Origin: an uncultured Anaerolineales bacterium
GTDB taxonomy: Bacteria; Planctomycetota; Phycisphaerae; FEN-1346
Reading direction: 5' to 3'
DNA: 51,990 nt
NCBI GenBank assembly: GCA_964510295.1
Contig: CAZEBQ010000003.1
Location: forward strand, 1-51,990
The notes beneath the pieces were generated by a model. The model had not been told where the DNA came from. It worked only from the letters and a program-made list of their open reading frames with translations, and did not search any database. Below, piece by piece: positions 46 to 26,621 of the stretch. Position 1 is the first letter of the stretch. The number at the start of each line of letters is the position of its first letter. The position numbers and the translations under genes are program-made.

Positions 46-120
46 TGGCTCCCCGGACGAGACTCGAACCTGTGCCCTTGTGGTTAACAGATGGGGTCCT
101 GGGCCCGTTCTCTAGGGCAG
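46..120 (-). other. tRNA-Asn(GUU)-like 3-prime fragment, not foldable into a full cloverleaf
   Basis: The reverse complement ends GGTTCGAGTCTCGTCCGGGGAGCCA (T-loop TTCGAGT, 7-nt acceptor strand, discriminator G, encoded CCA), as in tRNA-Asn. A CTGTTAA string lies upstream. However, the T-stem has a C-A mismatch, no complementary 5-prime acceptor strand (TCCCCGG) exists, and the anticodon stem does not pair. Confidence 0.35.
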
Positions 121-3100
121 TCTTCGGGCTGACACGCCGAAGGGGGACGCTGGGGCTCGCCGCTGCTCCGGCCCGAAGATGACGCCAAGCGCGTCGATGT
201 CATCGCCGCAACGTCCATGGATGCCGATAACGGGGCGCCCTTCCTCATACAGGCCGGTCCGCTTCCGGACCTCGTTGCTTCCCCATCCATCTGAGTAGCT
301 GCCCTCAAGGTCGAGGCCGTCGGGCCGAAGCCGGTGGAAGCGGAGTGTGACAGCGTTCACGCGCTGCCCGGCGCTGTAGACGTCCATGCCGGCCACGACG
401 TATCCGGGCCGTGCCACCAGTGCCTTCCGATACCCGCCGCCCTTGCCGAATACCGGCCCTTCCACGTAGCCGCGGCGCGTGAAGAAGATGGGCCGCAGGG
501 ACTTGATCACCACTTTGCCGCCGGATTGGCCGGTGGTGAGTTCCACCCCTGCAAGGAGGCCGCCCTCCTTAGGAATGTGCTCGAACGGCCGAGCCCCCTT
601 TCCGCCAATCGCATCACTCCTCAACGGCTTGTCTTCCTTGAGGAAACGTTCCAGCTCTTCCCATATCGGGAAGTCCGGACTTAACGGGAGCGTGCCGTAG
701 CATGTGACGAGGCGGGGTTGGCCCCAGAGGCGTGCGGCTTTCTGGGACGCCCCAAAGCCTTCCGCTATCAACTCCAGCGCCTCGACGTGCCCGACGGGCA
801 CGGTGAAATGCCGCGGTGCCTCTTCCCCGTCGCCGATTCTGGCCGACCAGAGTTCCTTGCCGTCACCGACAATGCGGTACGCGACATGGGCGTCCGGCCC
901 CAACTTCGTGGGGAACACGCGTCCGGTGACGAGGTCGAACGCCTTGTCCACGCGGTAAGTGACGGCAGCCTTGCCACCCGCGTCGGGCCGGACACGCAGG
1001 CATCGGACCGGGCTGTCTCCCCCTGAGTCGACATCTACCGGCTCGGGAGGTGCCGTTCGGCTCTCGATCGGATCCACTTCAGTCAAGTCTACCATCTGCT
1101 TCACGGCCCACAGTTCGCGGGATACTCTGGAATCCTCGTCAAGCGAGTGGACCACGATTCTGTGGAAGACTGCTTCGGCCCGATAGGTCCCAATGGCCGG
1201 CTGGTCCGCGTGGAGCCTCTTGTAGCGGAAGTGGTCGGGGAGTTTCAACCGTCCGGGCTTTCCGACCCAGTGGAGGATCTCTCTACCATCGAGCATGGCC
1301 TGAATCCGGACCAGCGGCCCGCCGCGGCGAACGAAGAGTTCCGCCGCGTATCTCCTGTTCTTCTCGAGCGAGAAGCCCCCCACGCGTGTCGGGTTGGGTC
1401 GGCCCTTCGAACGCTCGATGTCGTCCAGTCCGCAAGCGCCGCCCCACCCTCCCAACACGAGCGAACAACGGTGACCGGCCACAGGGAAAACGATGAACAC
1501 CTCCTCACCGTCCATCAGCGTGAACTCCACACGAAGGCGATAGTTGTCCTTCGGGAATACGGGCAGTTGGAGCGTGTTACCCCGCCCCTTCGTGGTCACG
1601 CGAAGCCCATCCGCCTGCGGAAGCCACGTCCCGACCCGCGCATGGAAATAGACGTTGACGTGAGGGATCACCTCAAGGGGTTTCTTGCGGCGTTTCACGG
1701 TGACAGCGGCGAGCCCCTCCACGTCCCTGTGGGGCTTGAGGCTGGCCCGATGGACCAGCCGCCGCCCCTTCGCGGCGGAGACCTCAATGGCCAATGGAAT
1801 CACGTCGCTCTCAAGCCGCTCGGGCACGTCCCAGGACACTATACCCTCGGACGAGACGTCCATGCCCCGCGGGCCGCTCAGCAGCCTGTACCGGACCTCC
1901 GGTTCGCTCGACCGCACGTCGAGTTTGTAGGCCCACTTGCGCCCTTCCAGCACGGTGGTCGGGGGGGACGATGCGACAAGCAAGTACGGTCGGTCGGTCT
2001 TCTCCAACGCCTCCATCCAGTCGTAACGGTATAGGACCAGCCTGTCATTGGATGGGGGAACCGTAGCGATGACCTTCTTGCCGGGGAGTGCCATGATCCG
2101 TTGATCCAGCGGCTGCTCGTCCCGCCACATGACCTCCCGGTCCACCATGTTCCACAGCGTGGGCCCCCAGCACACAAGCCGCCGGTCGTCGGCCCCCAGC
2201 AACCGCAGGCGGGGGCCGAAGCCCCTTGGGCCGTAGACCGCGCCGAACCCCGCGAGCAGCCGCGGGTGCCCGGTGGGCAACAGGCGGAACCAGCCCATCT
2301 CGTCCCGAGGGATGGGCAGTTCCTCCAACCTTCGGGAAAGCACCTCGTGCCGCGCGAAGAACTGTAACCCATCATGACTGGGCAGCAGCGGGCCGAACCC
2401 GCGTCGAACATGCCGCCCGACCATCTGGTCGCCGACCAATTGGATCCAGCACGAGCCGTAGAAGCGGTCACGGCTGCCCCATCCGGTAAACGTCTTGCCG
2501 TTGGCCGACGCCCGGCAGTGCTCCCATCCCTTCAGGTTCTTGGAGAAGAAGACTTTCATGGGCTTGAGTGTTGCGAGGTCGACGAGTTTCGGCTCATCCT
2601 TCTTGCCCGTGACCAGCACCGGACCGGCCGACGCCGATCCCATCGCAAGGCCCGTCAATGTCCCCACGTCCTCCAACTTGGCCTCGGCCTCGCGCGCCCG
2701 CGATGCCAGGTCCCATCTCTCAAGCGTCCTGTCCCGGGGGCTGGCGACGACGAGCTTCTCAACGCCCGCCGTGACCAGGGCTTCCTCGGAGGGGAGCGGC
2801 ACATAGCCATCCACGTGGCCCGAGGCGACGTCCAGGATGGCGAGTTTCCGTACGGAGCCCAGGTGGAGGAGGAGGTACTTGCCGCCGCCCCCGACGGCCG
2901 CCACCCCCTGAAGGTCGTACGGGAAGTCCAGGGTCTCGGACTCCGTCTTGATCTTCGTCTTGGCCGCCATGTAACGAGCCAAGGCCTCGATCATAGCGCG
3001 CCGGCGGGCCTCTTCGTCGGGCTCTGCGGGGGCCGGGGCGCCCTCGAACCGCATCGTTCCCTTCACGCGGTTCACCTCGTCGCCGCCACGCCGCGCGACG

Positions 3101-4329
3101 ATCGTGTAGTGAACCCGCCGCTCATCCGGATCAAGTTCTGACACCTCCACCAGAACAGCCTTGCTCAGATCGACGTCCCGGATCTCGCCCTCCTTCATGG
3201 TCGTCATCGTCCCCAACGCAGCCATGCTGCCGGGAACCTTGCGGCCGTCCCTCATCTCGGCGTGGGGCGTCGGCTGCGCATCGACCACTCGGACGTCGCG
3301 CAGCGCAACCTTCGTATCGCCGAACGTGATCCTCCGGTTCTCGCTCCAGCCGTCCGTGGCCCCATTCCTGCCGAGGGCCCGGAGCCCCACTCGCCCGGCT
3401 CCGAGGTCCTTCGGCACGGGGCGGGTCCGCGCCCGGAACGTGGTCGGCGACTCCCGCTCCAGTTTCACGACCCGCCGGTCGCCCAGACCGACGCTGAGAA
3501 CGAGCTCGACTGCCAAGTCCGCGGCCTTCGCCCGGGGGTGAGAGATCACCTCCAACATCAGCCCGGCAGGTTCGTACCTGTCGGCGTAAGCGATAGGCCC
3601 CCAGTCCAGAGCGAAGTGGGGCTGTTCGAGGAAGGCCTTGAGCCGGCTCACCGGCACGATGAAGTTCACACCGCTGCCGAACATGGCTGTGGCGACGACG
3701 ACGCCGACCACCCTCCCGTTGGCATCGAGCACAGGGCCGCCCGAGTTGCCCGGATTGATGCTGGCGTCGATCTGGATGAGCGCCAGTTTGCCCTCTTCCT
3801 TGCGCAGGGCCGCCACCCGCCCCTTGTTGATGCTGACCGCCGGGTACAACTTCTCCCCCACGGTCAGCCACTTACCGAAGGGGTAGCCGAACGCCGTAAC
3901 CTCGACCGTCTCTGTCAGGGCAGCGTCGTCGCCCAATTCCAGGGCAGCCAGGTTCTCGGCCTCCTTCGCCCGCAGCAGGGCGATGTCCACCTCCGGATCA
4001 ACGCCCACAACCGCGGCCTCGAAGGCCTTTTGGTCCGGCTGCCCCCCCTCCATGACCACCTTTACGGTCTCCCCGTGCTCCCGGTCAGCCACCACGTGCC
4101 AGTTGGTGACGAACAGCCCCGCCGGGTCGATACAGAAGGCGGAGCCGGAGCCACGTTCTCCCAGGTCCACCAGGGCCGTCGCCCGCTTGCCCTGCTCAAC
4201 AACGTCTGCGCGCACGCGGGCGCACGGCAAGAGGCCCCCTGGCAGGAGCATGAGAAGGACCCAACAAGAGAAGCCCAGCCAGCCGTCGCGGCGTCGGCCG
4301 CGCATGACAGAAGAACCCGCAGCGATCAT
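112..4329 (-). CDS. Secreted trypsin/HtrA-like (S1) serine protease with LamG-like, NPCBM-like and jacalin-like lectin domains
   Basis: ORF 112..4524. I moved the start to ATG 4329 (AGGGGG 7 nt upstream, then the signal-like MIAAGSSVMRGRRRDGWLGFSCWVLLMLLPGG). Triad motifs TNWHVV, DIALLRA and GNSGGPV are present. Also seen: a putative Ig-like repeat, a LamG-like module (SLVLGGWGGACGLDD), an NPCBM-like stretch (YRIVGDGKELWSA) and a C-terminal jacalin-like stretch (GIHGRCGDDIDALGVIF). Confidence 0.85.
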   Translation of the reverse strand: MIAAGSSVMRGRRRDGWLGFSCWVLLMLLPGGLLPCARVRADVVEQGKRATALVDLGERGSGSAFCIDPAGLFVTNWHVVADREHGETVKVVMEGGQPDQKAFEAAVVGVDPEVDIALLRAKEAENLAALELGDDAALTETVEVTAFGYPFGKWLTVGEKLYPAVSINKGRVAALRKEEGKLALIQIDASINPGNSGGPVLDANGRVVGVVVATAMFGSGVNFIVPVSRLKAFLEQPHFALDWGPIAYADRYEPAGLMLEVISHPRAKAADLAVELVLSVGLGDRRVVKLERESPTTFRARTRPVPKDLGAGRVGLRALGRNGATDGWSENRRITFGDTKVALRDVRVVDAQPTPHAEMRDGRKVPGSMAALGTMTTMKEGEIRDVDLSKAVLVEVSELDPDERRVHYTIVARRGGDEVNRVKGTMRFEGAPAPAEPDEEARRRAMIEALARYMAAKTKIKTESETLDFPYDLQGVAAVGGGGKYLLLHLGSVRKLAILDVASGHVDGYVPLPSEEALVTAGVEKLVVASPRDRTLERWDLASRAREAEAKLEDVGTLTGLAMGSASAGPVLVTGKKDEPKLVDLATLKPMKVFFSKNLKGWEHCRASANGKTFTGWGSRDRFYGSCWIQLVGDQMVGRHVRRGFGPLLPSHDGLQFFARHEVLSRRLEELPIPRDEMGWFRLLPTGHPRLLAGFGAVYGPRGFGPRLRLLGADDRRLVCWGPTLWNMVDREVMWRDEQPLDQRIMALPGKKVIATVPPSNDRLVLYRYDWMEALEKTDRPYLLVASSPPTTVLEGRKWAYKLDVRSSEPEVRYRLLSGPRGMDVSSEGIVSWDVPERLESDVIPLAIEVSAAKGRRLVHRASLKPHRDVEGLAAVTVKRRKKPLEVIPHVNVYFHARVGTWLPQADGLRVTTKGRGNTLQLPVFPKDNYRLRVEFTLMDGEEVFIVFPVAGHRCSLVLGGWGGACGLDDIERSKGRPNPTRVGGFSLEKNRRYAAELFVRRGGPLVRIQAMLDGREILHWVGKPGRLKLPDHFRYKRLHADQPAIGTYRAEAVFHRIVVHSLDEDSRVSRELWAVKQMVDLTEVDPIESRTAPPEPVDVDSGGDSPVRCLRVRPDAGGKAAVTYRVDKAFDLVTGRVFPTKLGPDAHVAYRIVGDGKELWSARIGDGEEAPRHFTVPVGHVEALELIAEGFGASQKAARLWGQPRLVTCYGTLPLSPDFPIWEELERFLKEDKPLRSDAIGGKGARPFEHIPKEGGLLAGVELTTGQSGGKVVIKSLRPIFFTRRGYVEGPVFGKGGGYRKALVARPGYVVAGMDVYSAGQRVNAVTLRFHRLRPDGLDLEGSYSDGWGSNEVRKRTGLYEEGRPVIGIHGRCGDDIDALGVIFGPEQRRAPASPFGVSARRLP

Positions 4330-4466: not shown

Positions 4467-6692
4467 TCATCGAATACGCCGCACCTCGCCTCCAGACAGT
4501 GCCTGTACGGTCATTCTCTCCCACAGCACCTTGGAGTTGGACGCCCCGAAGCCGATCCGGTGCTGCGCCGGGATACGCCAGCCCCTGTACATGGTCAGGT
4601 GCTGTGCCTCCCCGGACCAGTCAATGATCGCCTCGCCATCAAGCCAGGCGACGATCCGCACCTTCCCCGGCCACACGACCACGGTGGCGCGGACGTGATA
4701 GCGCCGGCCGTTCTCCAGGCGGCCGCTGTCGAGCGTCGTCTCGTTTTGGTGCCCTGGTTTCCCTCGAATCTGATCCAGGCCGTGGCAGATGTTCCCGTAA
4801 TAGCCGAGGCCGAGCAGGACCTGCCGGTCGCCCACAGGCAGTACAATGCCCACCGTGTCGTTGCCCTCAGTCCGGGTAAGCGTGGCCTCGAGGAGGAATC
4901 CCCCCTGAACCTCCACCGGAGCCATGACCTTGGCCCCCTGGCTGGGGCCGTTCAGACGGAGCCCGCCATCGGCCCGATCCCACCCGCCTTCGAGCACGTC
5001 GCGGTCCGGATCGACCGCAGCGAGGACGTCGAGGACCGACCCGACCGGCTTCGTGCCGACCTCGGCGCCGCCTGCGTTCTCCGACGCCTCCTTCACACGC
5101 AGCAGTCTCGCGTTGCCCGAGAGTATGCGCAGGCGCACGCTCCGGAAAACGACGTGCGAATTGTTGACGCCCAGGCCGAGACATCCGGCCTGAGGCAGTC
5201 GCCAGGAGTGGTGCACACTGAGCGCGGAGGCCAGGCCGTGCCAGTTCATGTATGGCTTGCCGTCGAGTATCACAGCGATGTCGGCCTGCCCGCCCTCAAG
5301 GAGTACCTTGATTCTCAGGCTGTATTCGCGCCCGTTCACGAGACGGGCGGGCCTAACCCGGGGCTCATCAACGCCGCCCAAATCCAGCACCGACAGCTCC
5401 CCGTGACGGTGGCTGAGCATCAAGATCGAACGCTCACGCCTCGCGGGAAGGAACACGGCGACTGTATCGTCCCCCGTCAGGCGCACGAATCTCACGTGGA
5501 GTTCGTAACCCCCCTCCGGCGCCACCGGAAGGACGATACGGCCCGCGAGGAGGGGGCTGGTAATCGCAAGCCCCGAGTCTTGGCGCTGCCACGTGCCGTG
5601 GACCGCATCCTTCGCCGCGTCCACGAGAGGCAGCAGGTTCACCCACCAGCCGGGCCCGATGACGCCCGGCCGTGCTGCCCCTTCGGCAGGTGCTGCGCCG
5701 TGCAACTCCGCAAGGGCGCCTTCGACCTTGCCGAGGGCCTCTTTCGCCAGCACACGGCCTTCGTCCTGCGCCGTGTGCAGCAGAAGAAACCGCTCCAGAT
5801 ACGCCCGGGCCCGGGCGTGGATGGCCGGCTTGGTGGACGCGGCGGACGCCTCCGCCAGGCCGTGGTACCACTGGCCGAGTTCCAGGCAGATGCGTTCTGA
5901 CGTTTCCGCCATCGGCTTGGCCGCCGCCGGGACGCACCTCTTCAGGGCCTTGTCCTGCACCTCGCCGGCGCCCAGTACCGCGGCCGCCTTGCCCGGATCA
6001 TTCCGCTCCACGACGTACAGCCGGACCAACTCCTCACGCGCCGAGACGTTGCCCGGCTCCTTCTCGAGCCGGGTCTGGAGGTCGGCGATGCGGCGGGCGG
6101 TTCTCGCCCGATGGTCGAGATCCTCGGCGTGCTGCCCGATGCTCGGCAGACGGGGACTCTCGATCGTCGATGCCACAGTCTTCGCCTGGCCCAGCAGGCG
6201 ACGCGCTTCCGCCAGATCGTCGGCCCATTCCCTGGCGTAGGCGGTCTCCAGCAATGCGTCCAGCAGGCCTTCGCCCGCAACCTTCCGCTCCTCGCCTTTG
6301 GCCGCGTCGAACTGCTTCTGCCGGATCTCAAGCAAGCGCCCTCGAGCGTCCGCCTCCCTTGCGGGAACATACGCAGCCAGAAGGTTCATGGCCCGGGCCA
6401 CGGTCGCGTAACCGGCGGGATGCGCACCTACGAGACGGGTAGCCTGGTCACAAAAGACCTCCACCAAAGCCGCGCGGTCAGGAACGGCCTGGGCGGCATC
6501 AAGGATTTGCCCCGCGAGGTCCACGTCATCGCTGGGATCGTCTGTTCCCTGAACGCGCTTCAGATCCGCACCGAAGAGAGATCCGAAAGCCTTCTGCGCC
6601 GCTTGGCTCTCGGCCGCCGCGGCCGCTGCACACGACACAGCCAGAAACAGCAGCAGAAGAACCGCCCGGCGGGCTTGCACTCTGTGGCCCAT
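4467..6692 (-). CDS. Secreted protein: helical N-terminal region plus two LamG/DUF1080-like beta-sandwich modules
   Basis: ATG 6692 with AAGGAC upstream. Signal or lipobox-like LLLLFLAVSCAA. Two modules of about 180 aa each open with W.(N/D)LL..VD..KDAV.G.W and end in F(R/E)..(R/T)(L/V)..LSG. It is a paralog of 6723..8633. Confidence 0.8.
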   Translation of the reverse strand: MGHRVQARRAVLLLLFLAVSCAAAAAAESQAAQKAFGSLFGADLKRVQGTDDPSDDVDLAGQILDAAQAVPDRAALVEVFCDQATRLVGAHPAGYATVARAMNLLAAYVPAREADARGRLLEIRQKQFDAAKGEERKVAGEGLLDALLETAYAREWADDLAEARRLLGQAKTVASTIESPRLPSIGQHAEDLDHRARTARRIADLQTRLEKEPGNVSAREELVRLYVVERNDPGKAAAVLGAGEVQDKALKRCVPAAAKPMAETSERICLELGQWYHGLAEASAASTKPAIHARARAYLERFLLLHTAQDEGRVLAKEALGKVEGALAELHGAAPAEGAARPGVIGPGWWVNLLPLVDAAKDAVHGTWQRQDSGLAITSPLLAGRIVLPVAPEGGYELHVRFVRLTGDDTVAVFLPARRERSILMLSHRHGELSVLDLGGVDEPRVRPARLVNGREYSLRIKVLLEGGQADIAVILDGKPYMNWHGLASALSVHHSWRLPQAGCLGLGVNNSHVVFRSVRLRILSGNARLLRVKEASENAGGAEVGTKPVGSVLDVLAAVDPDRDVLEGGWDRADGGLRLNGPSQGAKVMAPVEVQGGFLLEATLTRTEGNDTVGIVLPVGDRQVLLGLGYYGNICHGLDQIRGKPGHQNETTLDSGRLENGRRYHVRATVVVWPGKVRIVAWLDGEAIIDWSGEAQHLTMYRGWRIPAQHRIGFGASNSKVLWERMTVQALSGGEVRRIR

Positions 6693-6722: not shown

Positions 6723-8633
6723 CTAGTCGACCGGTTTGGTTGGCGCCGGTGCCGCCATCGAATCGTCCTCCGTGCGTAGGAGCCGGACATGCCCCGAAAG
6801 CATCCGCAGGCGAACGCTCCGGAACACCACCTTGCCGCCCCAGGCGCCCACGCCGAGCCGGTTGGGGTTCGGCAGTCGGAACTGGTCCCAGACCGTGCAT
6901 GACCCGGTCGGACCGTACCACGTGAAGTACGGCGCGCCGTCGAGGCGCACATCGACCTCGGCCTCCAAACCGCTCGTGCGGACCGTGACCTGAAGGTCAT
7001 ATGGCTTCCCGTTCTTGAGCGGCGCGGGCGAGACCATCGTCGCCCCGTCCTTGGCCCAGAACAGGCCGCTCCGCTTGTTGACCTCTTTGGCGATCAAAAC
7101 GGAGGTCGCGCGTGCACCCACGGGCACGATGACGCCGACCTCGTTGTCCCCCTGCACGCGAGTGAATTGGAGTTCGAGCCGGTAGTCCCCCGCCACGGCG
7201 CACGGAAATGCCAAGCGTGATCCCCCAGGGCCGGTCATGACCAGACCGTCGTCCTGGCGCGTCCACTGGCCCTTGACGGCATCCTTTGCGGGATCAACGT
7301 GGGCGAGCAAGTCAATCCACGGCCCAGGGCCGATCCTTTGTTCATCTGACGAAGCATCCGGCTCGGCCTTGGGCTCGGCGTGCGTCTCGGCTGCGACCTC
7401 GCCCCCTTGGCCCGGCCACAGGTGGCAGGCCCTGCCCGAGAGCATCTTCAGTCGACCCTCTGCGAACATCACTCCCGCCCCCCAAAGGCCCAGCCCGAAG
7501 CAACCCTGCTCCGCGACCGCGTAGTTGGCCGAGAGGGCCGACTGGGGCCCGTTCCAGTTGAGGTACGGCTTGCCATCGATGTGCACGTCGATCTTTGCCC
7601 GGTCGCCGTCGAGGGTCACCTGCACCGCAGTCCGGTAGAGACGCCCGTTCTCGAACTGGCCGGGCCGGATCGTCGTCTCGTTGTCTTTCGCCGGCTTCCC
7701 GTCGACCATCGCCAGGCCGGAGAACTTCCCTCCCCCCCAGCCGAGGACAAGGGTCGCATCGTTGAAGCCCACCGGCAAGGTAAACGTTACCTGACCCGGG
7801 CCCCACGTGCGCTTCCAGACGAACTCCGCCCGGTACGATCCCTTGGCCTGGACCGGCACGGTCAGGCGGGCGTTCGCCTTGCTCCACACTTCCAGCCCTT
7901 CGGGCTTGTGTGTGCATTTGCCCTCATGGCAGTGCGTCTTGGGATCGACGACCGGCAGGATGCTTACCCATCGGCCGGTCGGAAGGACCCTGCTGGAGGG
8001 AATCTCCGCAAGCGTCCCCGTGCCGGCGCGTGCAGGGGCGGCCGGTCCGGCCTTCTCAAGCGCTTCGGCTTCCGCCTCGATCTGGGCCGACCGTTCGCTC
8101 CCGGCCTTCCGGGCCACGGTGACGGCCTCGCGGCAGAGGGTCGATGCCTCTTTCAGGTCGCCCGCCCTCCGCTTCCTTTCGATGCGCGCCAAGAGCCCGT
8201 CCAGAAGCGCCTCGCCGACCAGCTTCCTTTCCGCGCCGCGGGCGGAGGTGAACTGTTTCCGGCAGATCTCCAACTGCCTGTCGCGAGCCCGCGCGGCCTC
8301 CTTCGGAGCGGCCTCGGCTAACAGGTCCATTGCGCCGATGGCTGTCCCATAGCCGGACGGATGCCCGGAGGCTAACCCGTACGCGCGTTCGCAGAACACC
8401 GCCACCAGCGCCGGGCGGTTAGGGACCTTCTGGGCGGTGTCGAGGATTCTTCCCGCAAGGTCTACGTTGTCGTCGGGGGTCTCCGTCTCGCGAACCTGCG
8501 TCACGTCATCGCCGAAAAGCGATTCGAAAACCACTTGGGGATCCTGGGCATCGGCCGCGATGGCAGGGTCCACGACTGCCGGACAAAGACCCAGCACACA
8601 GACAACCGCGAGACATGGCCGTGCACTACCCAT
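6723..8633 (-). CDS. Secreted protein, paralog of 4467..6692 (helical region plus two LamG-like modules)
   Basis: ORF 6723..9206 trimmed to ATG 8633 (MGSARPCLAVVCVLGLCPAVVDPAIAADA signal). The N-terminal region aligns residue-for-residue with the neighbouring gene (FESLFGDDVTQV.. vs FGSLFGADLKRV..). Module endings are FAEGRLKMLSG and FRSVRLRMLSG. Confidence 0.8.
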   Translation of the reverse strand: MGSARPCLAVVCVLGLCPAVVDPAIAADAQDPQVVFESLFGDDVTQVRETETPDDNVDLAGRILDTAQKVPNRPALVAVFCERAYGLASGHPSGYGTAIGAMDLLAEAAPKEAARARDRQLEICRKQFTSARGAERKLVGEALLDGLLARIERKRRAGDLKEASTLCREAVTVARKAGSERSAQIEAEAEALEKAGPAAPARAGTGTLAEIPSSRVLPTGRWVSILPVVDPKTHCHEGKCTHKPEGLEVWSKANARLTVPVQAKGSYRAEFVWKRTWGPGQVTFTLPVGFNDATLVLGWGGGKFSGLAMVDGKPAKDNETTIRPGQFENGRLYRTAVQVTLDGDRAKIDVHIDGKPYLNWNGPQSALSANYAVAEQGCFGLGLWGAGVMFAEGRLKMLSGRACHLWPGQGGEVAAETHAEPKAEPDASSDEQRIGPGPWIDLLAHVDPAKDAVKGQWTRQDDGLVMTGPGGSRLAFPCAVAGDYRLELQFTRVQGDNEVGVIVPVGARATSVLIAKEVNKRSGLFWAKDGATMVSPAPLKNGKPYDLQVTVRTSGLEAEVDVRLDGAPYFTWYGPTGSCTVWDQFRLPNPNRLGVGAWGGKVVFRSVRLRMLSGHVRLLRTEDDSMAAPAPTKPVD

Positions 8634-8945
8634 GGCACCCCCCGTTTGTGCCGACCAGCAGATGAGACCTGAACCGGCACGTGAGCCATTATGCGTGCGC
8701 GCCTCAAGGGTGTCAACACACCAGCGATCACCTGGGTGCACGCGTGCGAACGTCCCGAACAGCCCTGACTGACTCAGGCGAACGTCGGGAGGAGGCTTGC
8801 TCTGCAGGGCGTCAAGCCTCGCGCGGACGGGGGGAGGAGCGGAGGTGTGACCCCGCTTCGTACGGTTTGCACAACTTGACGATTGGTACACCAGCACCGT
8901 ACAACCCAGCGGGAGGGATCGGCACGCACAGACAGAGGGTGGACG

Positions 8946-14493: not shown

Positions 14494-14520
14494 CCGTTCC
14501 ACCTCTGCGAAGCGACTACC

Positions 14521-18843: not shown

Positions 18844-21641
18844 TCCGGCTCGCCCTCCGCCTTGGTTGCGCCAGCGAAGAGAGGGTCGATGTCGGTGCTG
18901 CGGATGAGGTAGGGTCCCCACTCGTTCGCCTGGTTCTCCCAGCCCTTCCAGGAGGCCATGGACGCCAAAACGAAGCCCCACTTCGGGTGCCATGCCATCG
19001 CATCGAGGTCGTGCGTCACGCCGCTGTACCACGGCGATCGCTGCCACGAGCCGTCGGGCATCTCGCGGATCAGGAACAGCCTGCTGCGCATGCGGGCCTG
19101 CGGTGCCACGCAAACGCACAGGATGGTTCTCCCGTCGCGTTGCATGGGCGACAGGTAGATACTGCGGCCCTTGAGCGTACTGAGTTTCTCCTCCTTCGAC
19201 CAGGTGACGCCGTCCGTGCTGGTGAACCGGCGCAGCGGCCCCACCGGCTCCGGCGGCTTCTCGAACACCTCACGCCAGCGGTCTTTCGGACGGGTGGCGC
19301 AGAACAGTTCGTAGGTGTCGTCGTGCCGCACGTGGATGGCCAGACCGTTGATGCACTCCCCCGGTGACGTCACATCGACGCGGCCGAGCGGTTCCCAGCG
19401 GAATCCGTCGCGACTGACAAGGGTCCGCACCTCGCCTCCGTTTCCCTCGGCCTTGGAGTACGCAATCACGAACCGGCCGCGGCCATCCTGAATGAGATGG
19501 CGGATCGGCATGCCCACCTCGTCCGCGACCTCGGCCGGCGCGCTCCAGTGGACGAAATCGCGCGACCAGCAGGCGAACGGCCGGTAGACGTGCTGCGGGT
19601 TGCGGTCGGACTTGAAAACGACCATGAACCGTCCCGACTCGTCGCGGAGCAAGCGAGGCTCGCCTTCCAGCCACGCCGTGGAGACGGGCAATGGTAGGCG
19701 CGCAGGCGTGGAAAACGTCTGCCCGTCCGTGCTCATCGACGACCACAGGTCGCCGCCTCGGCTCCAGACGAGGCGGATCGCCTCATTGTCCATCTGGACG
19801 GCAGGAACGCCCTGAAAGCGACGGGCCAGGGCAAGGTCGTGTCCGTCGTAGCAGCTGCCAACCAGGACACCATCCGTCCACGACGACCAGGGGGTGTCTT
19901 GGCGCCACGGCAGGGTGCCTACGAAACGGATCGTCTCACCGGTCTTGACGAGCACACGGGCCGTCGCTTCGCCATGCAGCGCGCTGGGACCGTCCGGATA
20001 GAACCTCAGCGTGCGCGGGCCCGCCGGCAAGAGACCGATCAGGCCGGGCCCGCGCCGGCCGGGGCGGCCGTCCACATCGACGCGGAAATGCTCGGTATTC
20101 GAGCACGAGACGTCGATCGCGCCGAACCGCCGTGGCCGGTCAAACGTCGCCCTTACGCGCAGCCCATCGAGAAGCAGTTTCTCGTCTTTCACGGGCGCGT
20201 CGGGGGTCACCTTCACCATGACCTCGAAGAGCCCGCCCCGCGGCAGGTTACCGAAAGGGATGCCCTGCGTCTTGGCCTCGGCGATCGACACGGTCCGCTG
20301 TGCCACGTCCCCCGTGCCGTGGCTGGACGCATTGACGTCCTTGGCGAGGTCTACCTCGACCGTGCCGCGTTCGACGGCGATCTTCGGATGCAGCCGCATC
20401 GTCGTGAAGACGCTTCCGCTCGGGGCAATGATCCCGTAGTGCTCAACCGTGTACGGATACTCCTTGACTGCGCCCCCCAACGTTTGCCAGATAATCCTGG
20501 AGACGGCCTCGGTCTCGCCAGGCTTGAAGTGAACCACCTTGAACAGCGTGCTTCCCCAGCCCAGTCTCGGCAACTCTTTCGGGGCAAACGTCTCGCCCGT
20601 GAGGGCGTTGTGCCGTCGCAGGGCCAGGTCACAGTTGTAGTCCCCGGGCAGGTCTGGTCGCCCGGGCCCGGCAGACAGAAGCACCGCCTCGCGGTACCTC
20701 CCCATCTGCTCGAGCAGGAGTCCGGTCTTTTGGCCGAACCACGCTCCACTCCACCAGGGCACCCTCCCGCCGTCCCATAAGAAGCCCGGCACCTCCGGGA
20801 AGCGACGGTTGAAGTCCTTGTACAAGGCCAGGAGGGCTTCTTGCGGCGTGTCGAGTTTCTCGTAGGTGTGCAGGAACTCCATGACGGCGTCGCCGACTCG
20901 CGGGTGAGCGCTGTCGAGGTAGACAAACTGCTCAAACGCCCGCCGCGCGTGCTCGTAGCGGTCCATGAAGTAGTACATCTTGCCGACCCAGTACGTCGCC
21001 TCCAGGTAGTCCGGATCCTCCCGCGACGCCTGACGGAACTTGACCCATGCCTCGCCGTAGCGGCCCTGGTCGTACAGGTCCATGCCTTCGTACAGGGCAC
21101 GCGCAGCCGGGATGCTCTTCGTCCAGACGGGGAGCGCCTTGAGCACCTCTTGCGACGTCTTGCCCGTGAACAGGGCAACCATGTCGGCGCTCAAGCGCCG
21201 CGTCAGTTCGAGGGCTTCGGCGGCCTTCCCGGAGACCGTGCAGCGGCCGCGCTCCTCGCCCGTCTTCACCTGCACGGCCGTCCCTGTGATGGAGATCTTC
21301 TCGCCCGTGACCTGGAACACGCCGGAGGCCACGTACTTGATGCGGAGCGTGTTTCGAACCATTCCCATGCGCCCGGTGTCCGCCATCATCTCGGGCACCC
21401 ACTCCATCTTCGCCGCCAGATCCTGCATGGCGTCGCGTTTGATGACGTCCAGCGAGCGCTCGATGTGAAAGTCGGTGATGATCCGATCTGCCAGCCCCTT
21501 TTCGAGCCACTTCCACTCGGGCGTGTCGGAGGTCATCTGGAAGTTGAAGACAGCCACGTTTGTGGCACAAGGCGCCGGCGGTGGCGCCAACAAGGGCCCG
21601 GCAGCCGCGACCACCAGGGCGGCGAGTTGCGAACCCTTCAT
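18840..21641 (-). CDS. Secreted paralog lacking the C-terminal module (alpha/beta module + TPR + PEGA-like + Asp-box propeller)
   Basis: ORF 18840..21869 trimmed to ATG 21641 (AGGAGG upstream; MKGSQLAALVVAAAGPLLAPPPAPCATNV). Motifs NVAVFNFQMTSDTPEWKWLEKGLADRIITDF, STDGQTFS, WSRDFVHWS, SRDGFRWE, STDGVTWS. Confidence 0.85.
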   Translation of the reverse strand: MKGSQLAALVVAAAGPLLAPPPAPCATNVAVFNFQMTSDTPEWKWLEKGLADRIITDFHIERSLDVIKRDAMQDLAAKMEWVPEMMADTGRMGMVRNTLRIKYVASGVFQVTGEKISITGTAVQVKTGEERGRCTVSGKAAEALELTRRLSADMVALFTGKTSQEVLKALPVWTKSIPAARALYEGMDLYDQGRYGEAWVKFRQASREDPDYLEATYWVGKMYYFMDRYEHARRAFEQFVYLDSAHPRVGDAVMEFLHTYEKLDTPQEALLALYKDFNRRFPEVPGFLWDGGRVPWWSGAWFGQKTGLLLEQMGRYREAVLLSAGPGRPDLPGDYNCDLALRRHNALTGETFAPKELPRLGWGSTLFKVVHFKPGETEAVSRIIWQTLGGAVKEYPYTVEHYGIIAPSGSVFTTMRLHPKIAVERGTVEVDLAKDVNASSHGTGDVAQRTVSIAEAKTQGIPFGNLPRGGLFEVMVKVTPDAPVKDEKLLLDGLRVRATFDRPRRFGAIDVSCSNTEHFRVDVDGRPGRRGPGLIGLLPAGPRTLRFYPDGPSALHGEATARVLVKTGETIRFVGTLPWRQDTPWSSWTDGVLVGSCYDGHDLALARRFQGVPAVQMDNEAIRLVWSRGGDLWSSMSTDGQTFSTPARLPLPVSTAWLEGEPRLLRDESGRFMVVFKSDRNPQHVYRPFACWSRDFVHWSAPAEVADEVGMPIRHLIQDGRGRFVIAYSKAEGNGGEVRTLVSRDGFRWEPLGRVDVTSPGECINGLAIHVRHDDTYELFCATRPKDRWREVFEKPPEPVGPLRRFTSTDGVTWSKEEKLSTLKGRSIYLSPMQRDGRTILCVCVAPQARMRSRLFLIREMPDGSWQRSPWYSGVTHDLDAMAWHPKWGFVLASMASWKGWENQANEWGPYLIRSTDIDPLFAGATKAEGEPE

Positions 21642-21696: not shown

Positions 21697-23982
21697 CTAC
21701 TGCCTCTTGGCCTTCTCCTTGGCGTCCAGGGCGGCGAGTTTTTCCCGGGCCGTCTTGGCGAACTCCGTGTCGGCGTACTCGGTGATGACGCGCCGGTATT
21801 CGCGGCGTGCGGCATCGGGTTTCCCGGCTTTCTCAAGCATCGCGCCCAGTTGAAGCGCATTGCGGGCAAGGAGGCGTTTCCGTTCGGCGGGGTCCTGCTG
21901 CTTCGGAGCGGGCTTGGCGATGGCCGGAGCGGCAGGCCGCTCCTTGGGTTTGGACGTCGTCGGGATCTTCGGACCGAGGCGTTCGGGGGAGGTCTGGGCG
22001 TCCTTGAGTTTCGCCTCGTTCAGAAGCTTCCCCATTGCGGCGGCCCGCTCCGAGTCTGGGCGCCGCGCCACGTACTTCTCCCACTCGATGACCGCGTGGG
22101 CGTGTTCGCCCAGGCGCTGGTGACACATGCCCTGCCAGAAATGGGCCTCCGTGTAGTCTGGGTCCAGATCCATCGTCCTCATGAACTGCATAATGGCTGC
22201 ATCCATGTTGCCGGCGTAGTAATGGCTCAAGGCCTTGGCGAAGTGGAGGCTGGCGACCGGTGACTTATCGATCTCGGTCAGGTCGATCTCAGGCAGCGGC
22301 ACGGCCATCTGCGTGCTCATCTTGCGGGCCAGTTGAAGGGCCGTCTCCATCATGTCCACCGGCCGGAACGACACCTGGTCGGCCGCCACCACGCGATCGG
22401 TGGGAATGTCGATCGCCTGAAGGCTGACGGTGAGCTTGTCCTGTACCAGAAAGAGCCGACCGGTCAGGACAGTGTCGGCCTTGAGGAGCTTTCCTGCCGC
22501 CACCGCATACTTCTGGCCCGTCAGGCCTTTCAGCGACTTGGCCTGTTCGTCGGTCAGCGCAAGCAGCCGCTGCCGCTCCACAACGGTGACGTTCTCATGC
22601 CGGGCCAGGAGGACGGCCACCAGGTCTCCCAACCCCGCGGCAGCGGGGTCGTACTGCTCCTCGCCGGTCTCGTTTTCAAGAGGCACGGCAAAGACGGTGC
22701 GTTTGACGGGTTTCTGCTGCCCTGCCGGTGCCGCAGCCGAGTCGGATGTCTTTGGCGTCTCGGCGGCAGGCGAGTCCTGGAGCGGCGCGGCAAAGACGCG
22801 GACGACCGTGCTCGCCGGTTCGTGCGGCGTGGCTTTCGTGTTCCCGCCGGCAGGTTGCCTGAGAGGCATCTTCTCAGCGGCGGGCTTCTTCTTGCCATAA
22901 GTGACCAGGCGCCGACAGACGGCCAGGCCAAGTTTGCGGCCCGCCTTCTGGAGGGCGGTCTTTCCGGCCGTCACCTCGTTCAGGTCCACCGCACGCTGGG
23001 TGGCCCGGTCGGCTACAAGTATCCGGCCCGTGTGCCGGTCGATCGCGTTGATCTCCGCCCGGCCCGTGCACGTGACCAGATCACCCGTACGGAGGGCGAA
23101 CTCGCTGAAGGCCTCTCCGACGACGATCACGTCGGCCTCGCGGACGGCCGCCGGCCATGGAGCGCGCTCGCCCTTCATCAGTCTCTTGGCCCAGTCGGCG
23201 AGGTCGTTCCTGCCGGTGTCCACAACGGTGAATCCGCACGCCACAAGGGTGCGTTTGATCTCGGTCTCAACCGACGGGTCCACAACGATGCGCAGGATGT
23301 GCATCTCGGGAACGATCACGGCCACCGTGGGGGGGGCGCGATCGCCGAGGGCCTTGCGGATCTCGGCCACCGGGTCAGGCATCCGCGCCGTGTCGGGGAG
23401 CAGGTTCGGTCCCTGTTTGCGGATGAGTTCGGCCACGTCCTCCGACATCTTGAAGATGGCCTCCGACATATTCTTCGTGGGCTCGACTTTGCTGATGTTG
23501 CCCTTGACGCGGCCGGTCTCGACGCCAACCACCTTGGTCACAAAGATGAGGTGCTTGTCCATGGTGAAGGTCTTGCCGATGATCATGATCTGGGCGCCGA
23601 GGAGTTTGCCGACCTGGACGGCCTTTTCCTGGTCGGCAAGGCCGGTGAGTTTCAGTTTCTGTTCCTGGAGGATCTTGTCGAGTTTTGCCCGTTCGACCAA
23701 CTCGAACTCCTCCTCCACGCTCAGACGCACGGTCAGAAGGTCGGCAATCTGCTGGCCGAGGTCCCTGTTCTTGTACGTGCCCGTTTCGTAGTTGAGAATG
23801 GCCACCACCGGCAGGGACTTCCTGGCGGCGGGCCCCTCGGACGGGACGGGTGCCGCCTTCTTGGCAGTCTCCCCCGGCGGAGTCGCCGGCACGCCCTTGA
23901 GGACGTCAGCCTCGCACGTGCTCGTTGCAGTTGCGGCCAAGATGACAAGTGCTGCGGTCACGACATTGAGTCTGAGCCACAT
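21697..23982 (-). CDS. Secreted or lipoprotein-like protein with three CsgG/FlgO-LPP20-like alpha/beta modules and C-terminal TPR repeats
   Basis: ATG 23982 with AAGGAG upstream. Signal ending ATATSTC. Module 1 is VVAILNYETG..LGQQIADLL..FELVERAKLDKILQEQKL..GAQIMIIG..VVGVETGRV. Module 3 is VFAVPLENETG..VTVVERQRLLALTDEQ. TPR is YAGNMDAAIMQFMRTMDLDPDYTEAHFWQGMCH. Confidence 0.8.
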   Translation of the reverse strand: MWLRLNVVTAALVILAATATSTCEADVLKGVPATPPGETAKKAAPVPSEGPAARKSLPVVAILNYETGTYKNRDLGQQIADLLTVRLSVEEEFELVERAKLDKILQEQKLKLTGLADQEKAVQVGKLLGAQIMIIGKTFTMDKHLIFVTKVVGVETGRVKGNISKVEPTKNMSEAIFKMSEDVAELIRKQGPNLLPDTARMPDPVAEIRKALGDRAPPTVAVIVPEMHILRIVVDPSVETEIKRTLVACGFTVVDTGRNDLADWAKRLMKGERAPWPAAVREADVIVVGEAFSEFALRTGDLVTCTGRAEINAIDRHTGRILVADRATQRAVDLNEVTAGKTALQKAGRKLGLAVCRRLVTYGKKKPAAEKMPLRQPAGGNTKATPHEPASTVVRVFAAPLQDSPAAETPKTSDSAAAPAGQQKPVKRTVFAVPLENETGEEQYDPAAAGLGDLVAVLLARHENVTVVERQRLLALTDEQAKSLKGLTGQKYAVAAGKLLKADTVLTGRLFLVQDKLTVSLQAIDIPTDRVVAADQVSFRPVDMMETALQLARKMSTQMAVPLPEIDLTEIDKSPVASLHFAKALSHYYAGNMDAAIMQFMRTMDLDPDYTEAHFWQGMCHQRLGEHAHAVIEWEKYVARRPDSERAAAMGKLLNEAKLKDAQTSPERLGPKIPTTSKPKERPAAPAIAKPAPKQQDPAERKRLLARNALQLGAMLEKAGKPDAARREYRRVITEYADTEFAKTAREKLAALDAKEKAKRQ

Positions 23983-25049
23983 TGCCAGTCTCCTTTATTC
24001 CCTGTTTTTCTGTTGCCCGTGCCATGCTCTCGAACAGCCCAAAGAAGCAGTTCGCCGAGGATGCTCCGTCCGACGGCGTCCGTAGCGGGGTCCTCCGCCC
24101 GCGGAAGCATCGTCACGACCAGCCATCCCTCACCCACACGCCGCGCGCCCACGAGCGTATGCACGACGGTCTTACGGGACGCGGGTGCGTCCTGCTGAAC
24201 GTTCTCCTGCTCAATCCACGCCAAGGGTACAACATCGGCCCCCGTCCGGAGAGCGTACGACCAGGGCCCGTTGCCCAGGTCGTCCGGCCGGAGGATTTGC
24301 CGGAAACCCATCGCCAGACGGGCCGGACCGGAGAGCGGGTCCGCGAACGTGTTGCGGCAGAATCCCCAGGCCTCCCATTTGGGCGGCGGGTTGAGCACCA
24401 CGAGCGTCATGCCCCTCTTCAAACGGCCCTCCAGGCCGCGGCACGCACCGGCCAGACTCCCGGCTCGCCGGTGGCCGGCAAGGATGGCCACGTCGCCGCC
24501 GAAGATGAGTTTCTGGATGTCGGTTTCCAATCGGTCAAAAGCCACCTTCTCGGATTCCAGGGCAGTCTGCAACCTGCCGGTCGGATCCGCCGCCGCAAGC
24601 GCCAGGTCGGCCAACCGCCCGGCGGCCGGAGCCAACAACGACGAGGGGAAGACCTCTACCTCCTTCGCCTCGGAACCGGCAGGAACGCGGACCAGCAGCC
24701 GACAGACCGTCCGCGTCCGGACCTTCGGAACCACAAGCCGAAGCCGACCGTGTCCCCCCGCGTCGATCCGGACTGCGCCATGAGCCAGAACGTCGTCGCC
24801 GTAGGCAAACGCCCACACGGCCTCCTGGTTGGCTTCGGCGGTCACGTGCACAGCCAGGACCGTCCGGGCGAAGACACGCAGTCGGGCGCCACGCGCCCGG
24901 ACGCCGGAGTCGGAAAGATCTACGAAAACGGCGACGTCCGCGCGGGCGCCGGGTTCGAGTTCGGCACCGCTCGCGCCGCGCGCCGGGGTGACCGCTAGGC
25001 TCAGCAACGTCCCCAGCAACGCTGCGTTTCGAGGGCTCACCCGCCCCAT
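23958..25049 (-). CDS. Secreted hypothetical protein
   Basis: ORF 23958..25112. ATG 25049 gives MGRVSPRNAALLGTLLSLAVTPARGA (signal-like). I recognised no domain. The 3-prime end overlaps the next gene's start by 25 nt. Confidence 0.6.
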   Translation of the reverse strand: MGRVSPRNAALLGTLLSLAVTPARGASGAELEPGARADVAVFVDLSDSGVRARGARLRVFARTVLAVHVTAEANQEAVWAFAYGDDVLAHGAVRIDAGGHGRLRLVVPKVRTRTVCRLLVRVPAGSEAKEVEVFPSSLLAPAAGRLADLALAAADPTGRLQTALESEKVAFDRLETDIQKLIFGGDVAILAGHRRAGSLAGACRGLEGRLKRGMTLVVLNPPPKWEAWGFCRNTFADPLSGPARLAMGFRQILRPDDLGNGPWSYALRTGADVVPLAWIEQENVQQDAPASRKTVVHTLVGARRVGEGWLVVTMLPRAEDPATDAVGRSILGELLLWAVREHGTGNRKTGNKGDWQCGSDSMS

Positions 25050-25086: not shown

Positions 25087-26007
25087 TCAGCCGATGGCCC
25101 TGCCAAGCCCAACCGCCTGAAAAACGACGTGCACCCGGTCTCCCTCCATGCGGAACTGGCCCAATTCCACGGGCCCTTCGCCAGTCATCACGCGTCCTTT
25201 CACCCCAGCGGTGCTAGCCGGTTCGGTGCCGACCATCACGGCGACCGTCGCGCACGCATTCGCGGCGGCCACCTCACAGTGAATCGGACGGCCCTTGAGA
25301 CGACCGACATCAGGCAGCGACAGGCGGGTGCGACCGCCGCTTGGCACGAGCACGTTGAACGTCTCCAGGATGCGTCCCGTTGCCGTCACCATCCGGCATC
25401 TCAGAAGGAGCAGTTCGGCGCCGGCACTGGTGCCGTCGGCTGTGGGCACGTAGCCGAACTGACCCACCCCCTCGCCCAGCAGCACCCACGGTCTCGATCG
25501 GGCCGGTCCCTCGCCCACGTGCTGCCAGATCTGGCGATAGGAGGCCATCTCTGCCGCCGAGACCTGCGGCATACTCAGCGTCTGCTCCATCCTGGCCAGT
25601 TTCTCTTCGATTCTCCGGCCGGTCCACACAGCCGCCACGGCGACAAACACCGACGCCAGTACCACGACGGCCGCCGCCGCCCGTAACACCCACCAGGCAC
25701 GCCGCCGGCGTCGAGAGGTCTCGACGCCATGCCCGGCAATCCGGTCAGCTGCGGGCAACGATCCTGCGGCAGGGACCGACGACAGGATCGATGCCATCGA
25801 CGCGCGGAGCACCGTAACGGCTTCGTCATGACCGCAAGCGGCCCGCGCCTGCGTCTGAGTCTGGATCATCTCACGCAGGAGCCCGCGGGCTTCGTCGTCG
25901 CGCGAGACGAGCGCCAGCAGGGCGCGCCGCTCATCCGAGTCCGGCTCATCACACAAAAGGGCGTGAAGCCGTTCTTCCAGGTCCAACCGGGCATCGTCGT
26001 CCATCAT
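25087..26007 (-). CDS. Membrane anti-sigma factor
   Basis: Its position immediately after the ECF sigma gene, with an ATGA overlap. It has an acidic N-terminal helix (LEERLHALLCDEPDSDERRALL), a single TM segment (WWVLRAAAAVVVLASVFVAVAAVW) and an extracytoplasmic C-terminal domain. Confidence 0.7.
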   Translation of the reverse strand: MMDDDARLDLEERLHALLCDEPDSDERRALLALVSRDDEARGLLREMIQTQTQARAACGHDEAVTVLRASMASILSSVPAAGSLPAADRIAGHGVETSRRRRRAWWVLRAAAAVVVLASVFVAVAAVWTGRRIEEKLARMEQTLSMPQVSAAEMASYRQIWQHVGEGPARSRPWVLLGEGVGQFGYVPTADGTSAGAELLLLRCRMVTATGRILETFNVLVPSGGRTRLSLPDVGRLKGRPIHCEVAAANACATVAVMVGTEPASTAGVKGRVMTGEGPVELGQFRMEGDRVHVVFQAVGLGRAIG

Positions 26008-26621
26008 TCTATCTCCGGAAAGGCTTGCCGCATGGCTTCCGTCAAGCGCCGACGCGCTTGGTGAACGCGAGAGGCCACGGTCCCCATCGGCAGACCCAGC
26101 AGTTCGGCCGCTTCCTGGTAGGTGTACCCATCCAGGACCGTTGCCGCAAACGCCTGCTTCACGAGCGTCGGAAGGTTGTTTATGGCATCCACAAGACGGT
26201 CGGCCTGCTCCGATCGCTCGACCGTCTCAGCCGGGTCGGCATCCCTGCTGGTTGCCGCTGCAACAGCCCATTCGTCCAGAGGTTGGGCAGACCGCACGGA
26301 CCGCCTTCGGTACCAGTCGCGCACGCAATTCAGCAAGATCTGGTGGAGCCAGGTTGTCGGCAGAACACCACCATCAAACGTGTCCCAACTCCTGAACGCC
26401 TTGTAGAACGTCTGCTGCGTGACATCGGCCGCGTCCTCGGGATTGCGCGTCAGGCGCAGCGCCGTTCGAAAAAGGCGCGCATACCACTTCGCGATCTGAG
26501 CCTGGGTCGCCCGTTCCAATCGCGCCTCTGAGCCGTGTCCACAGTGCACCCAAGGGAAGCATCCCGACCACCTTATTAAACGGGCCAGCCAAGGGAGATT
26601 TCTATCGTTTTCTCGGTTCAA
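26004..26621 (-). CDS. ECF (group 4) sigma-70 family RNA polymerase sigma factor
   Basis: Region 2: NPEDAADVTQQTFYKAFRSWDTF..WLHQILLNCVRDWYRRR. Region 4: AATVLDGYTYQEAAELLGLPMGTVASRVHQARRRL. The ORF-track start is TTG 26621. The true start may be internal, for example GTG 26549. Confidence 0.85.
   Translation of the reverse strand: MNRENDRNLPWLARLIRWSGCFPWVHCGHGSEARLERATQAQIAKWYARLFRTALRLTRNPEDAADVTQQTFYKAFRSWDTFDGGVLPTTWLHQILLNCVRDWYRRRSVRSAQPLDEWAVAAATSRDADPAETVERSEQADRLVDAINNLPTLVKQAFAATVLDGYTYQEAAELLGLPMGTVASRVHQARRRLTEAMRQAFPEIE

Follow-up and report, generated by a model that had tools for sequence, protein, structure and literature searches.

An ECF sigma factor-headed operon of module-TPR-propeller proteins kept in an uncultured Phycisphaerae lineage

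The ten consecutive minus-strand genes at the start of contig CAZEBQ010000003.1 (assembly GCA_964510295.1, deposited as an uncultured Anaerolineales bacterium and placed by GTDB in the Phycisphaerae, FEN-1346) are two units, not one system. The window referred to throughout is the whole 51,990-nt stretch, with a G+C content of 65%, in which the ten long open reading frames (ORFs), named g1 to g10, lie between 112 and 26621. Unit A (g1-g7, about 10135-26606) is a seven-gene operon of ~16.5 kb that is kept in an uncultured lineage of Phycisphaerae/Planctomycetota; it encodes a sigma factor of the extracytoplasmic function (ECF) type, a putative anti-sigma factor, a secreted protein of an orphan family, a candidate hub protein and three large paralogs that join an alpha/beta module and tetratricopeptide repeats (TPRs) to a beta-propeller. 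Unit B (g8-g10), which encodes two LamG-like proteins and a protease, is a separate, lineage-specific block, whose genes are neighbours of the operon and not members of it. A sequence-only reading of the same DNA had described the ten-gene layout, its overlaps and the gaps it quoted correctly, and had taken the full 26.5 kb as one system; the latter claim fails, since none of the 26 related loci has the LamG-like proteins or the protease. The regulatory logic of Unit A is that of a classical ECF operon, while its cargo has no described counterpart in the sources searched.

Conservation of the operon in related genomes

The related loci, 26 in number, come from a scan of GTDB species genomes and were compared by tblastn with all proteins of the window. 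In 12 of them (L003, L004, L007, L008, L011, L012, L013, L014, L015, L016, L018 and L022), the genes for the sigma factor, the anti-sigma factor, g3, g4 and one or more paralogs occur in the same order and orientation; L037 and L042 are also syntenic, which gives at least 14 independent loci with an ECF sigma/anti-sigma head repeatedly linked to module-TPR-propeller proteins, in support of that part of the sequence-only reading. Outside the closest relative, identities are 49-61% for the sigma factor, 30-47% for the anti-sigma factor and 29-40% for g3, and g4 is the most conserved protein of Unit A, at 53-77% across loci versus 35-57% for the paralogs. The closest relative is represented by two contigs of one metagenome-assembled genome (MAG), L013 and L001, with identities of 80-93%; its g7 ortholog appears to be split between the contigs, with another paralog and an unrelated ORF coming after it on L001. 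Paralog copy numbers differ between loci, from 1 to at least 5 (L002, L017).

Further, the homologs of g5 number 117 and derive without exception from Phycisphaerae/Planctomycetota MAGs or metagenomes; they occur in ~930-aa and ~1400-aa forms and are labelled 'hypothetical', 'TolB-like', 'TolA-binding', 'TPR repeat' or 'ankyrin repeat' or are left unnamed. The gene set has no description in the literature searched, including the ECF genomic contexts of Casas-Pastor et al. 2021 (PMC7826278), and the cargo has no described counterpart in Pfam/NCBIfam names or database annotations. The earlier statement that the genes match no described system therefore holds for the database names and the literature searched. 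A connection with crateriform structures or S-layers was set aside, as nothing spoke in its favour.

The regulatory head: promoter, sigma factor and anti-sigma factor

An alignment of the regions upstream of the sigma genes contains a rigid bipartite motif, [G/A]AA-N17-CGT[C/T]T with extra conserved T and A positions, which precedes the sigma start by 46-93 nt in 13 of 13 readable loci; the estimated chance expectation is ~0.015 per 200-nt region. The copy in the window scores 34.7 bits and is the sole site of at least 12 bits on either strand of the 52 kb, where the next best reaches 8.8 bits. In Bacillus subtilis, promoters of the SigW/SigM type have a -35 element GAAAC and a -10 element CGT. 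Unit A shares with autoregulated ECF operons a sigma factor of two domains and a conserved GAA...CGT bipartite promoter before the sigma gene, and its co-translated g2 would correspond to their membrane anti-sigma factor; unlike the known ECF operons, it carries the g3 orphan, a three-module CsgG-like hub and giant propeller proteins, a cargo for which no counterpart has been described. Because the promoter stands in front of the sigma gene across the lineage, the sigma factor probably transcribes its own operon, and autoregulation of Unit A is, judging from sequence, most likely.

By its profile matches, g1 is an ECF (group IV) sigma-70 factor, of small size and with only the sigma-2 and sigma-4 domains (Sigma70_r2, 2.6e-13, 50 bits versus a cut-off of 24; Sigma70_r4_2, 5e-15, 55.3 bits versus 25.7; TIGR02937 sigma70-ECF, 89.6 bits versus 42.9). 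Its start is almost certainly at 26519 and not at 26621, where the sequence-only reading had put it, because the promoter overlaps the longer version of the ORF and in the close relative L042 its ortholog has a called length of 171 aa. The assignment of g2 draws on a weak match to the anti-sigma profile NF052375 (3.6e-5, 23.9 bits versus a cut-off of 100; no Pfam match), on a hydrophobic stretch at ~aa 104-128 seen by eye, and on its position, a g2-type gene always following the sigma gene in the related loci.

Four further occurrences of the motif are at sites left out of the building of the matrix. In L015 (789-4950, minus strand), a second site at 4947 is divergent, points away from the sigma gene and precedes the genes for two proteins, one a secreted WD40 protein and the other of 946 aa; the N-terminus of the latter (..LVERSQVDQVIEEQKLQ..) reads by eye as a CsgG-type module, while Pfam gives a TPR only; the site suggests a wider regulon of module proteins. 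In L011 (1262-2900, plus strand), a site of 20.7 bits precedes the gene for a BNR/Ycf48-like propeller protein with a PEP-CTERM anchor. Moreover, L008 has an extra site after the array, and L037 has a weak one before g3. Overall, as far as these motif matches go, the sigma factor seems to serve a small regulon of secreted proteins of the propeller and module kinds. The L011 locus begins with a partial gene for a second ECF sigma factor.

Gene layout

The features of the array are listed in Table 1. Start codons were picked from signal peptides and Shine-Dalgarno-like sequences. Adjacent genes are tightly packed, with ATGA overlaps between g1 and g2 (26004-26007) and between g5 and g6 (18840-18843), a 25-nt overlap between g3 and g4 (23958-23982), and remaining intergenic gaps of 37, 55, 27, 30 and 137 nt, the 1.5-kb stretch between g7 and g8 set apart. 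All proteins from g3 to g10 have signal-peptide-like N-termini when read by eye, those of g3-g7 being of the Sec type, and no transporter, ATPase or glycosyltransferase was found among the array proteins with Pfam and NCBIfam; both results agree with the earlier description of the genes after the anti-sigma factor. Rfam and tRNA scans of the window gave no match, and a terminator scan gave nothing above chance.

Table 1. Features of the array, in the order in which they are read on the minus strand.
Feature	Position	Strand	Description	Basis
ECF-type promoter	26569..26606	-	-35-like GAAATC, -10-like CGTTTAAT, GAA-N17-CGT spacing	Upstream alignment
g1	26004..26519	-	ECF sigma factor, 171 aa	Sigma70_r2, Sigma70_r4_2, TIGR02937
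g2	25087..26007	-	Putative single-pass anti-sigma factor, 306 aa	Weak NCBIfam match, hydrophobic segment, position
g3	23958..25049	-	Secreted orphan-family protein, 363 aa	Profile searches without match; synteny
g4	21697..23982	-	Hub candidate, 761 aa; three CsgG/LpoB-like alpha/beta modules and C-terminal TPR	Pfam
g5	18840..21641	-	Short paralog, 933 aa	AlphaFold2, Foldseek, 117 homologs
g6	14521..18843	-	Long paralog, 1440 aa; g5 architecture and ~500-aa C-terminal extension	Paralogy
g7	10135..14493	-	Long paralog, 1452 aa; last gene of the conserved unit	Paralogy
Relic	9281..9792	-	Frameshifted, internally deleted relic (pseudogene) of a g6/g7-type C-terminal extension	tblastn with g7
Sigma-70-like promoter candidate	8688..8716	-	TTGACA-17-CATAAT (11/12)	~55 nt upstream of g8
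g8	6723..8633	-	Neighbour, 636 aa; helical N-domain and two LamG-like modules	g9 paralog
g9	4467..6692	-	Neighbour, 741 aa	Paralog of g8
g10	112..4329	-	Neighbour, S1C (HtrA-type) protease, 1405 aa	Trypsin_2, NPCBM

The orphan family of g3 and the hub candidate g4

The protein of about 360 aa that the sequence-only reading had left without a family, g3, has no match in Pfam, NCBIfam or PDB sequences. A profile of its family likewise found nothing usable in PDB sequences and Pfam, where DUF4350 appeared for 3 of 53 members at 0.0016 or weaker. An exhaustive HMMER search of 1.84 billion proteins places the family at 89 representative clusters; a word-indexed homology search found 5 close relatives only. 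The gene is syntenic in at least 12 loci. In one representative, the 1268-aa protein P0285, the g3 domain forms the C-terminal part (residues 980-1254), an arrangement that could give a clue to what the domain does.

The hub candidate, g4, had been described as a triple alpha/beta-module protein with TPRs, and the profile searches agree: it passes the Pfam thresholds for CsgG (4e-18, 65.9 bits versus a cut-off of 20.8, in two stretches) and LpoB (4.6e-7, 30.3 bits versus 22.3) and has TPRs too. The stretch of g4 with its third module and TPR (residues 417-638) shows homology to the N-termini of g5-g7 (their residues 25-246; blastp, 9e-13), and the hub candidate and each paralog have this module-TPR cassette in common. 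The g4 match to CsgG is partial and, at the level of the profile, a CsgG-like pore or ring is not implied by it. Unit A as a CsgG curli channel was rejected on the partial profile coverage, on a lipobox that is not conserved, and on the absence of curli genes from the window and the related loci.

Architecture of the paralogs

The AlphaFold2 model of g5 (alignment of 28 homologs; predicted local distance difference test, pLDDT, 84; predicted template modelling score, pTM, 0.83) starts with an alpha/beta module at 27-159, which is followed by a TPR solenoid at 163-350, a beta-sandwich at 367-500 and a small PEGA-like sandwich at 506-575, and then has a six-bladed propeller at 614-915. The sequence-only reading had named an alpha/beta module, TPRs, a PEGA-like domain and an Asp-box propeller; the TPRs and the propeller stand, while the PEGA match stays below the Pfam cut-off (17.4 versus 20.8). 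The identity of g6 is 42% with g5, over aa 26-939, and 60% with g7. The C-terminal extension of g7 (aa 940-1452) is modelled as an all-beta multi-sandwich (pLDDT 87.5) and has no specific relative in a Foldseek search of the PDB, where generic FN3/Ig tandems are the best matches (E ~7e-4, template modelling (TM) score <0.2). Beyond the propeller, the C-termini vary among homologs between none, the beta-sandwich extension, a CBM9 that takes the place of the extension (P0016) and ankyrin repeats (P0064); a new scan did not recover PF22847, which is listed for some of the long homologs.

An A-x-A cleavage motif lies directly before a conserved TNVAVFNFQM strand in the paralog family (83 homologs), and a cysteine at that N-terminus is found in 4 of the 83. 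Because the A-x-A sites precede this strand and the cysteine is rare, the paralogs are secreted non-lipoproteins.

The N-terminal module, in which the g5 model has the order beta-alpha-beta-alpha-beta3-alpha, is of the CsgG/LpoB/FlgO/TolB-N type at the level of profiles, as had been proposed. Of these families (PF03783, PF13036, PF17680, PF04052), CsgG and LpoB are matched above threshold by g4, and the paralog family matches FlgO in 9 of 28 members (best 5.7e-7) and TolB_N in 1 of 28 (0.0023). The whole-model Foldseek search with g5 was dominated by the propeller, and the assignment of the N-module comes from profiles only. Unlike proteins of those families, those of Unit A fuse the module to TPRs and large extra domains, and no curli, flagellar or tol genes accompany it.

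The paralogs also recall the Tol-Pal system. TolB together with CpoB (YbgF) has a TolB-N-like domain, a YbgF-type TPR (matched by the paralogs through TIGR02795 at 5e-8 to 3e-6) and a six-bladed beta-propeller, all of them periplasmic, and the alpha/beta module, TPRs and propeller of the paralogs mirror this set; moreover, g4 matches LpoB, and homologs carry the JGI labels 'TolB-like' or 'TolA-binding'. Unit A might be a Tol-Pal/CpoB/LpoB-like scaffold for envelope integrity or peptidoglycan synthesis, induced by envelope stress through the ECF factor, and we consider this quite improbable. The paralogs, unlike TolB plus CpoB, fuse the parts in one chain with two extra beta-sandwiches, are multicopy and ECF-controlled, and lie outside a tol-pal operon, with no tolQRA or pal genes nearby; the propeller is of the BNR/sialidase type and not of the PD40 type of TolB; and the TolB matches are marginal (0.0076 for TIGR02800, apart from the single TolB_N member above). 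Variable copy number and variable C-termini also fit a diversification of ligands better than a housekeeping machine. The identification of the paralogs as TolB itself was rejected, as the propeller matches BNR_2 and sialidases and has no tol-pal neighbours.

The propeller and its relation to carbohydrate-active enzymes

The best PDB matches of the g5 model in Foldseek are sialidases, with Porphyromonas gingivalis PG_0352 first (PDB 8feb; 5e-14, probability 1.0) and NanA/B/C and NanH next, followed by the uncharacterised Dfer_1899 (TM 0.63), GH145 and PL24 structures. The model has the beta-sandwich and six-bladed Asp-box propeller of the GH33 sialidase PG_0352, with four Asp-boxes of the S-x-D-x-G-x-x-W/F type at ~637-643, 693-699, 743-749 and 808-814. 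Unlike GH33 sialidases, with which it is 13-15% identical, g5 lacks membership at the profile level (BNR_2, 30.4 versus a cut-off of 31.4), its propeller is appended to the module-TPR cassette, and the profile of the paralog family finds TPR matches only among PDB sequences. The predicted fold of the propellers matches, and they are not demonstrable GH33 enzymes.

Across 110 homologs, conservation is 0.64 in the N-module and 0.65 in the TPRs versus 0.52 in the propeller, where seven charged residues of blades 1-2 (R623, D631, E659, R666, R671, R680 and R694) are kept in at least 93% of homologs. These numbers bear on the possibility that Unit A is an operon of the polysaccharide-utilisation type, with active propeller hydrolases or lyases (sialidase, KDN-ase, GH145 or PL24-like), tethered by the N-terminal cassette, under an ECF factor induced by glycans. 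Such a reading would account for the fact that every propeller matched by Foldseek is carbohydrate-active, for the several conserved arginines and acidic residues, for the existence of a CBM9-bearing member, and for a flank rich in SASA esterases, a fucosidase, GH123-like and DUF4838-like proteins and a sulfatase, DUF4838 also occurring near the module in L038 and L042. We consider it unlikely nonetheless: the operon has no transporter or SusC/D-type partner, no GH33 appeared in the PDB profile search, BNR_2 stays below its threshold, the flanks are otherwise not conserved, and conservation is limited to blades 1-2, whereas the catalytic residues of sialidases would come from most blades, as judged from the topology and not by superposition.

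The gap after g7 and the g8-g10 block

The stretch between g7 and g8 (8634-10134), which the sequence-only reading had set apart from the other gaps, is not empty and holds a gene relic and a promoter candidate. The relic matches aa 1142-1262 of g7 in one frame (tblastn, E 6e-18) and aa 1392-1452 in another (E 3e-7), showing that paralogs decay or turn over where the array ends; the relic may reach ~10069, with a possible signal-peptide start there. The sigma-70-like site (one seen versus 1.9 expected by chance) is suggestive only, on its sequence, of a separate transcription of g8-g10. A plus-strand ORF (8883-9653) with a lipoprotein-like N-terminus (..VVLGLVVGLAC..) partly overlaps the relic and is possibly not a real gene.

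For g8, g9 and g10, tblastn found no match in the 26 related loci, the closest relative included. A LamG-like module is common to the three proteins, and because they share it they form a block of their own. The earlier assignment of g8 and g9 as LamG proteins stands as far as the LamG-like modules and the paralogy go, while the Pfam match is below threshold in g8 and missing in g9. Neither protein qualifies as a DUF1080/3-keto-disaccharide hydrolase (3keto-disac_hyd, PF06439; g8, 0.037, 14.5 bits versus a cut-off of 26.8; g9, no match). Relatives of g8 and g9 at 26-42% identity (36-42% for g9) lie on metagenome contigs without core genes, and a metagenome scan anchored on g8 gave relatives at 26-39% only, none adjoining core genes.

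The protease, g10, has a Trypsin_2 domain (3e-30, 106 bits; motifs TNWH, DIAL and GNSGGP) with HtrA-type PDB matches (2.5e-21) and no PDZ domain detected with Pfam, so that by these profiles it is S1C-like and not a canonical HtrA. Its decoration had been described as LamG-like, NPCBM-like and jacalin-like; the trypsin and NPCBM domains (NPCBM, 8.6e-6, 26.2 bits versus 23.9) hold up, while the jacalin-like end is weak (17 bits versus a cut-off of 22). Homologs of g10 cover the N-terminal ~60% only and sit in protease arrays or alone; planctomycete S1C proteases of ~860 aa share with it the Trypsin_2 triad motifs and a ~550-aa region (27-35% identity over ~60%) and, unlike g10, lack its ~560-aa C-terminus with LamG-like, NPCBM and jacalin-like parts, which is found in no homolog.

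These results weigh on the proposal of the sequence-only reading that the ten genes together make up one ECF-switched envelope system, with an oligomeric scaffold that presents propellers, LamG lectins and a lectin-guided protease. All ten genes are indeed adjacent on one strand, the window has a single ECF promoter, and the relic of a g6/g7 C-terminal extension stands directly before g8. Moreover, C-extension-like ORFs adjoin g9-like genes in L030, L031 and L034; in L030 (1444-9107, plus strand), the g9-like protein has as its neighbours such ORFs, a peptidase of the S41 type and a protein that truly belongs to DUF1080 (6.4e-16). Against this, g8-g10 are missing from the related loci including L001 and L013, the L037 array ends at an integrase directly after the paralogs, g8 is preceded by 1.5 kb that hold a pseudogene and a candidate sigma-70-like promoter, and the relatives of g10 lie in protease arrays or alone. 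We therefore consider a ten-gene system very improbable, and the protease is unlikely to be part of the proposed scaffold-propeller-protease complex. A LamG-pair protein, a protease and a C-extension-like protein may make up a recurrent module of their own.

Flanking genes

Directly upstream of the operon promoter, an ORF of 154 aa (26743-27207, plus strand) codes for a tyrosine recombinase of which just the C-terminal catalytic part is there (Phage_integrase, 2.4e-14, profile positions 97-167 of 172). Integrases beside Unit A here and in L037 hint that the module may be mobile.

Further along, 27377-43788 (minus strand) is a glycan-degradation neighbourhood with a GH123-like protein (4.5e-282), sulfatase pieces, three proteins of the SASA sialate-O-acetylesterase family, an alpha-L-fucosidase and proteins with GH20b/GH67N-type domains. 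In L038 and L042, the module has DUF4838 genes next to it, and in L038 these carry similar N-domains. The neighbourhood could be there by chance in genomes rich in carbohydrate-active enzymes. Its partial sulfatase matches (30500-31450 and 35822-36940, minus strand), namely a 316-aa N-terminal piece and a 372-aa ORF with GHL6 and a sulfatase C-terminus, could be pseudogenes, frameshifts or assembly errors. The window further encodes a large protein with DUF6288 and HEAT repeats (44175-47225, minus strand; 1.7e-127) and a 1111-aa protein that combines a methyltransferase with a PQQ/BamB-like propeller (47744-51079, minus strand).

Discussion

The reading of Unit A that we prefer, and to which we give a little less than an even chance, is an autoregulated docking-hub envelope complex that displays glycan-directed heads. 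The sigma factor g1, once freed from the membrane anti-sigma factor g2, would transcribe its own operon, with g2, possibly together with g3, sensing the inducing signal. The module-TPR cassette would be the common docking or oligomerisation unit, through which g4, the three-module hub, would bring one to five paralogs together in a complex of the periplasm or the cell surface. Anionic glycans, either of the envelope or from the environment, would be bound, or possibly cleaved, by the diversified heads and C-termini.

Several observations weigh against this docking-hub picture. The best CsgG stretch in g4 spans profile positions 21-97 of 210 only; a lipobox-like cysteine is present in g4 of the window and in some orthologs and absent from most, and the paralogs are not lipoproteins, so the localisation of the proteins is uncertain. 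L038 has a one-module g4-like gene and paralogs without a sigma factor, an anti-sigma factor or g3, and solitary paralogs occur in L010, L019 and L024; the regulatory head is therefore not obligatory. The clustering of conserved propeller residues in blades 1-2 does not look, in the alignment, like a canonical sialidase active site, and we infer glycan binding by the propellers from the modelled fold alone. The relic beside g8 and the ORFs beside the g9-like genes leave a weak residual link between the two blocks. Further, all relatives are MAG-derived.

A different arrangement, which we consider rather unlikely, is a hitherto undescribed envelope machine specific to the Phycisphaerae lineage, in which g4 would assemble TolB/CpoB-like fusions into a hetero-oligomeric ring or lattice, with g3 as a co-sensor. 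Surface glycans would be captured or remodelled by its interchangeable heads and by adaptors at the C-termini, and the assembly would be made on demand through a dedicated ECF circuit with positive feedback.

Unit A is a conserved, self-contained module, with a predicted promoter, in a poorly known and mostly uncultured class. Two of its families, g3 and the C-terminal extension, have neither an annotation nor a relative of known structure, and its sigma-promoter pair is a candidate orthogonal regulatory part. Moreover, it provides a new context for the widespread cassette of a TolB-N/CsgG-like module and TPRs, about whose function little is known, model bacteria included; should it turn out to be a docking unit, this would aid the reading of many 'TolB-like/TPR' proteins elsewhere.

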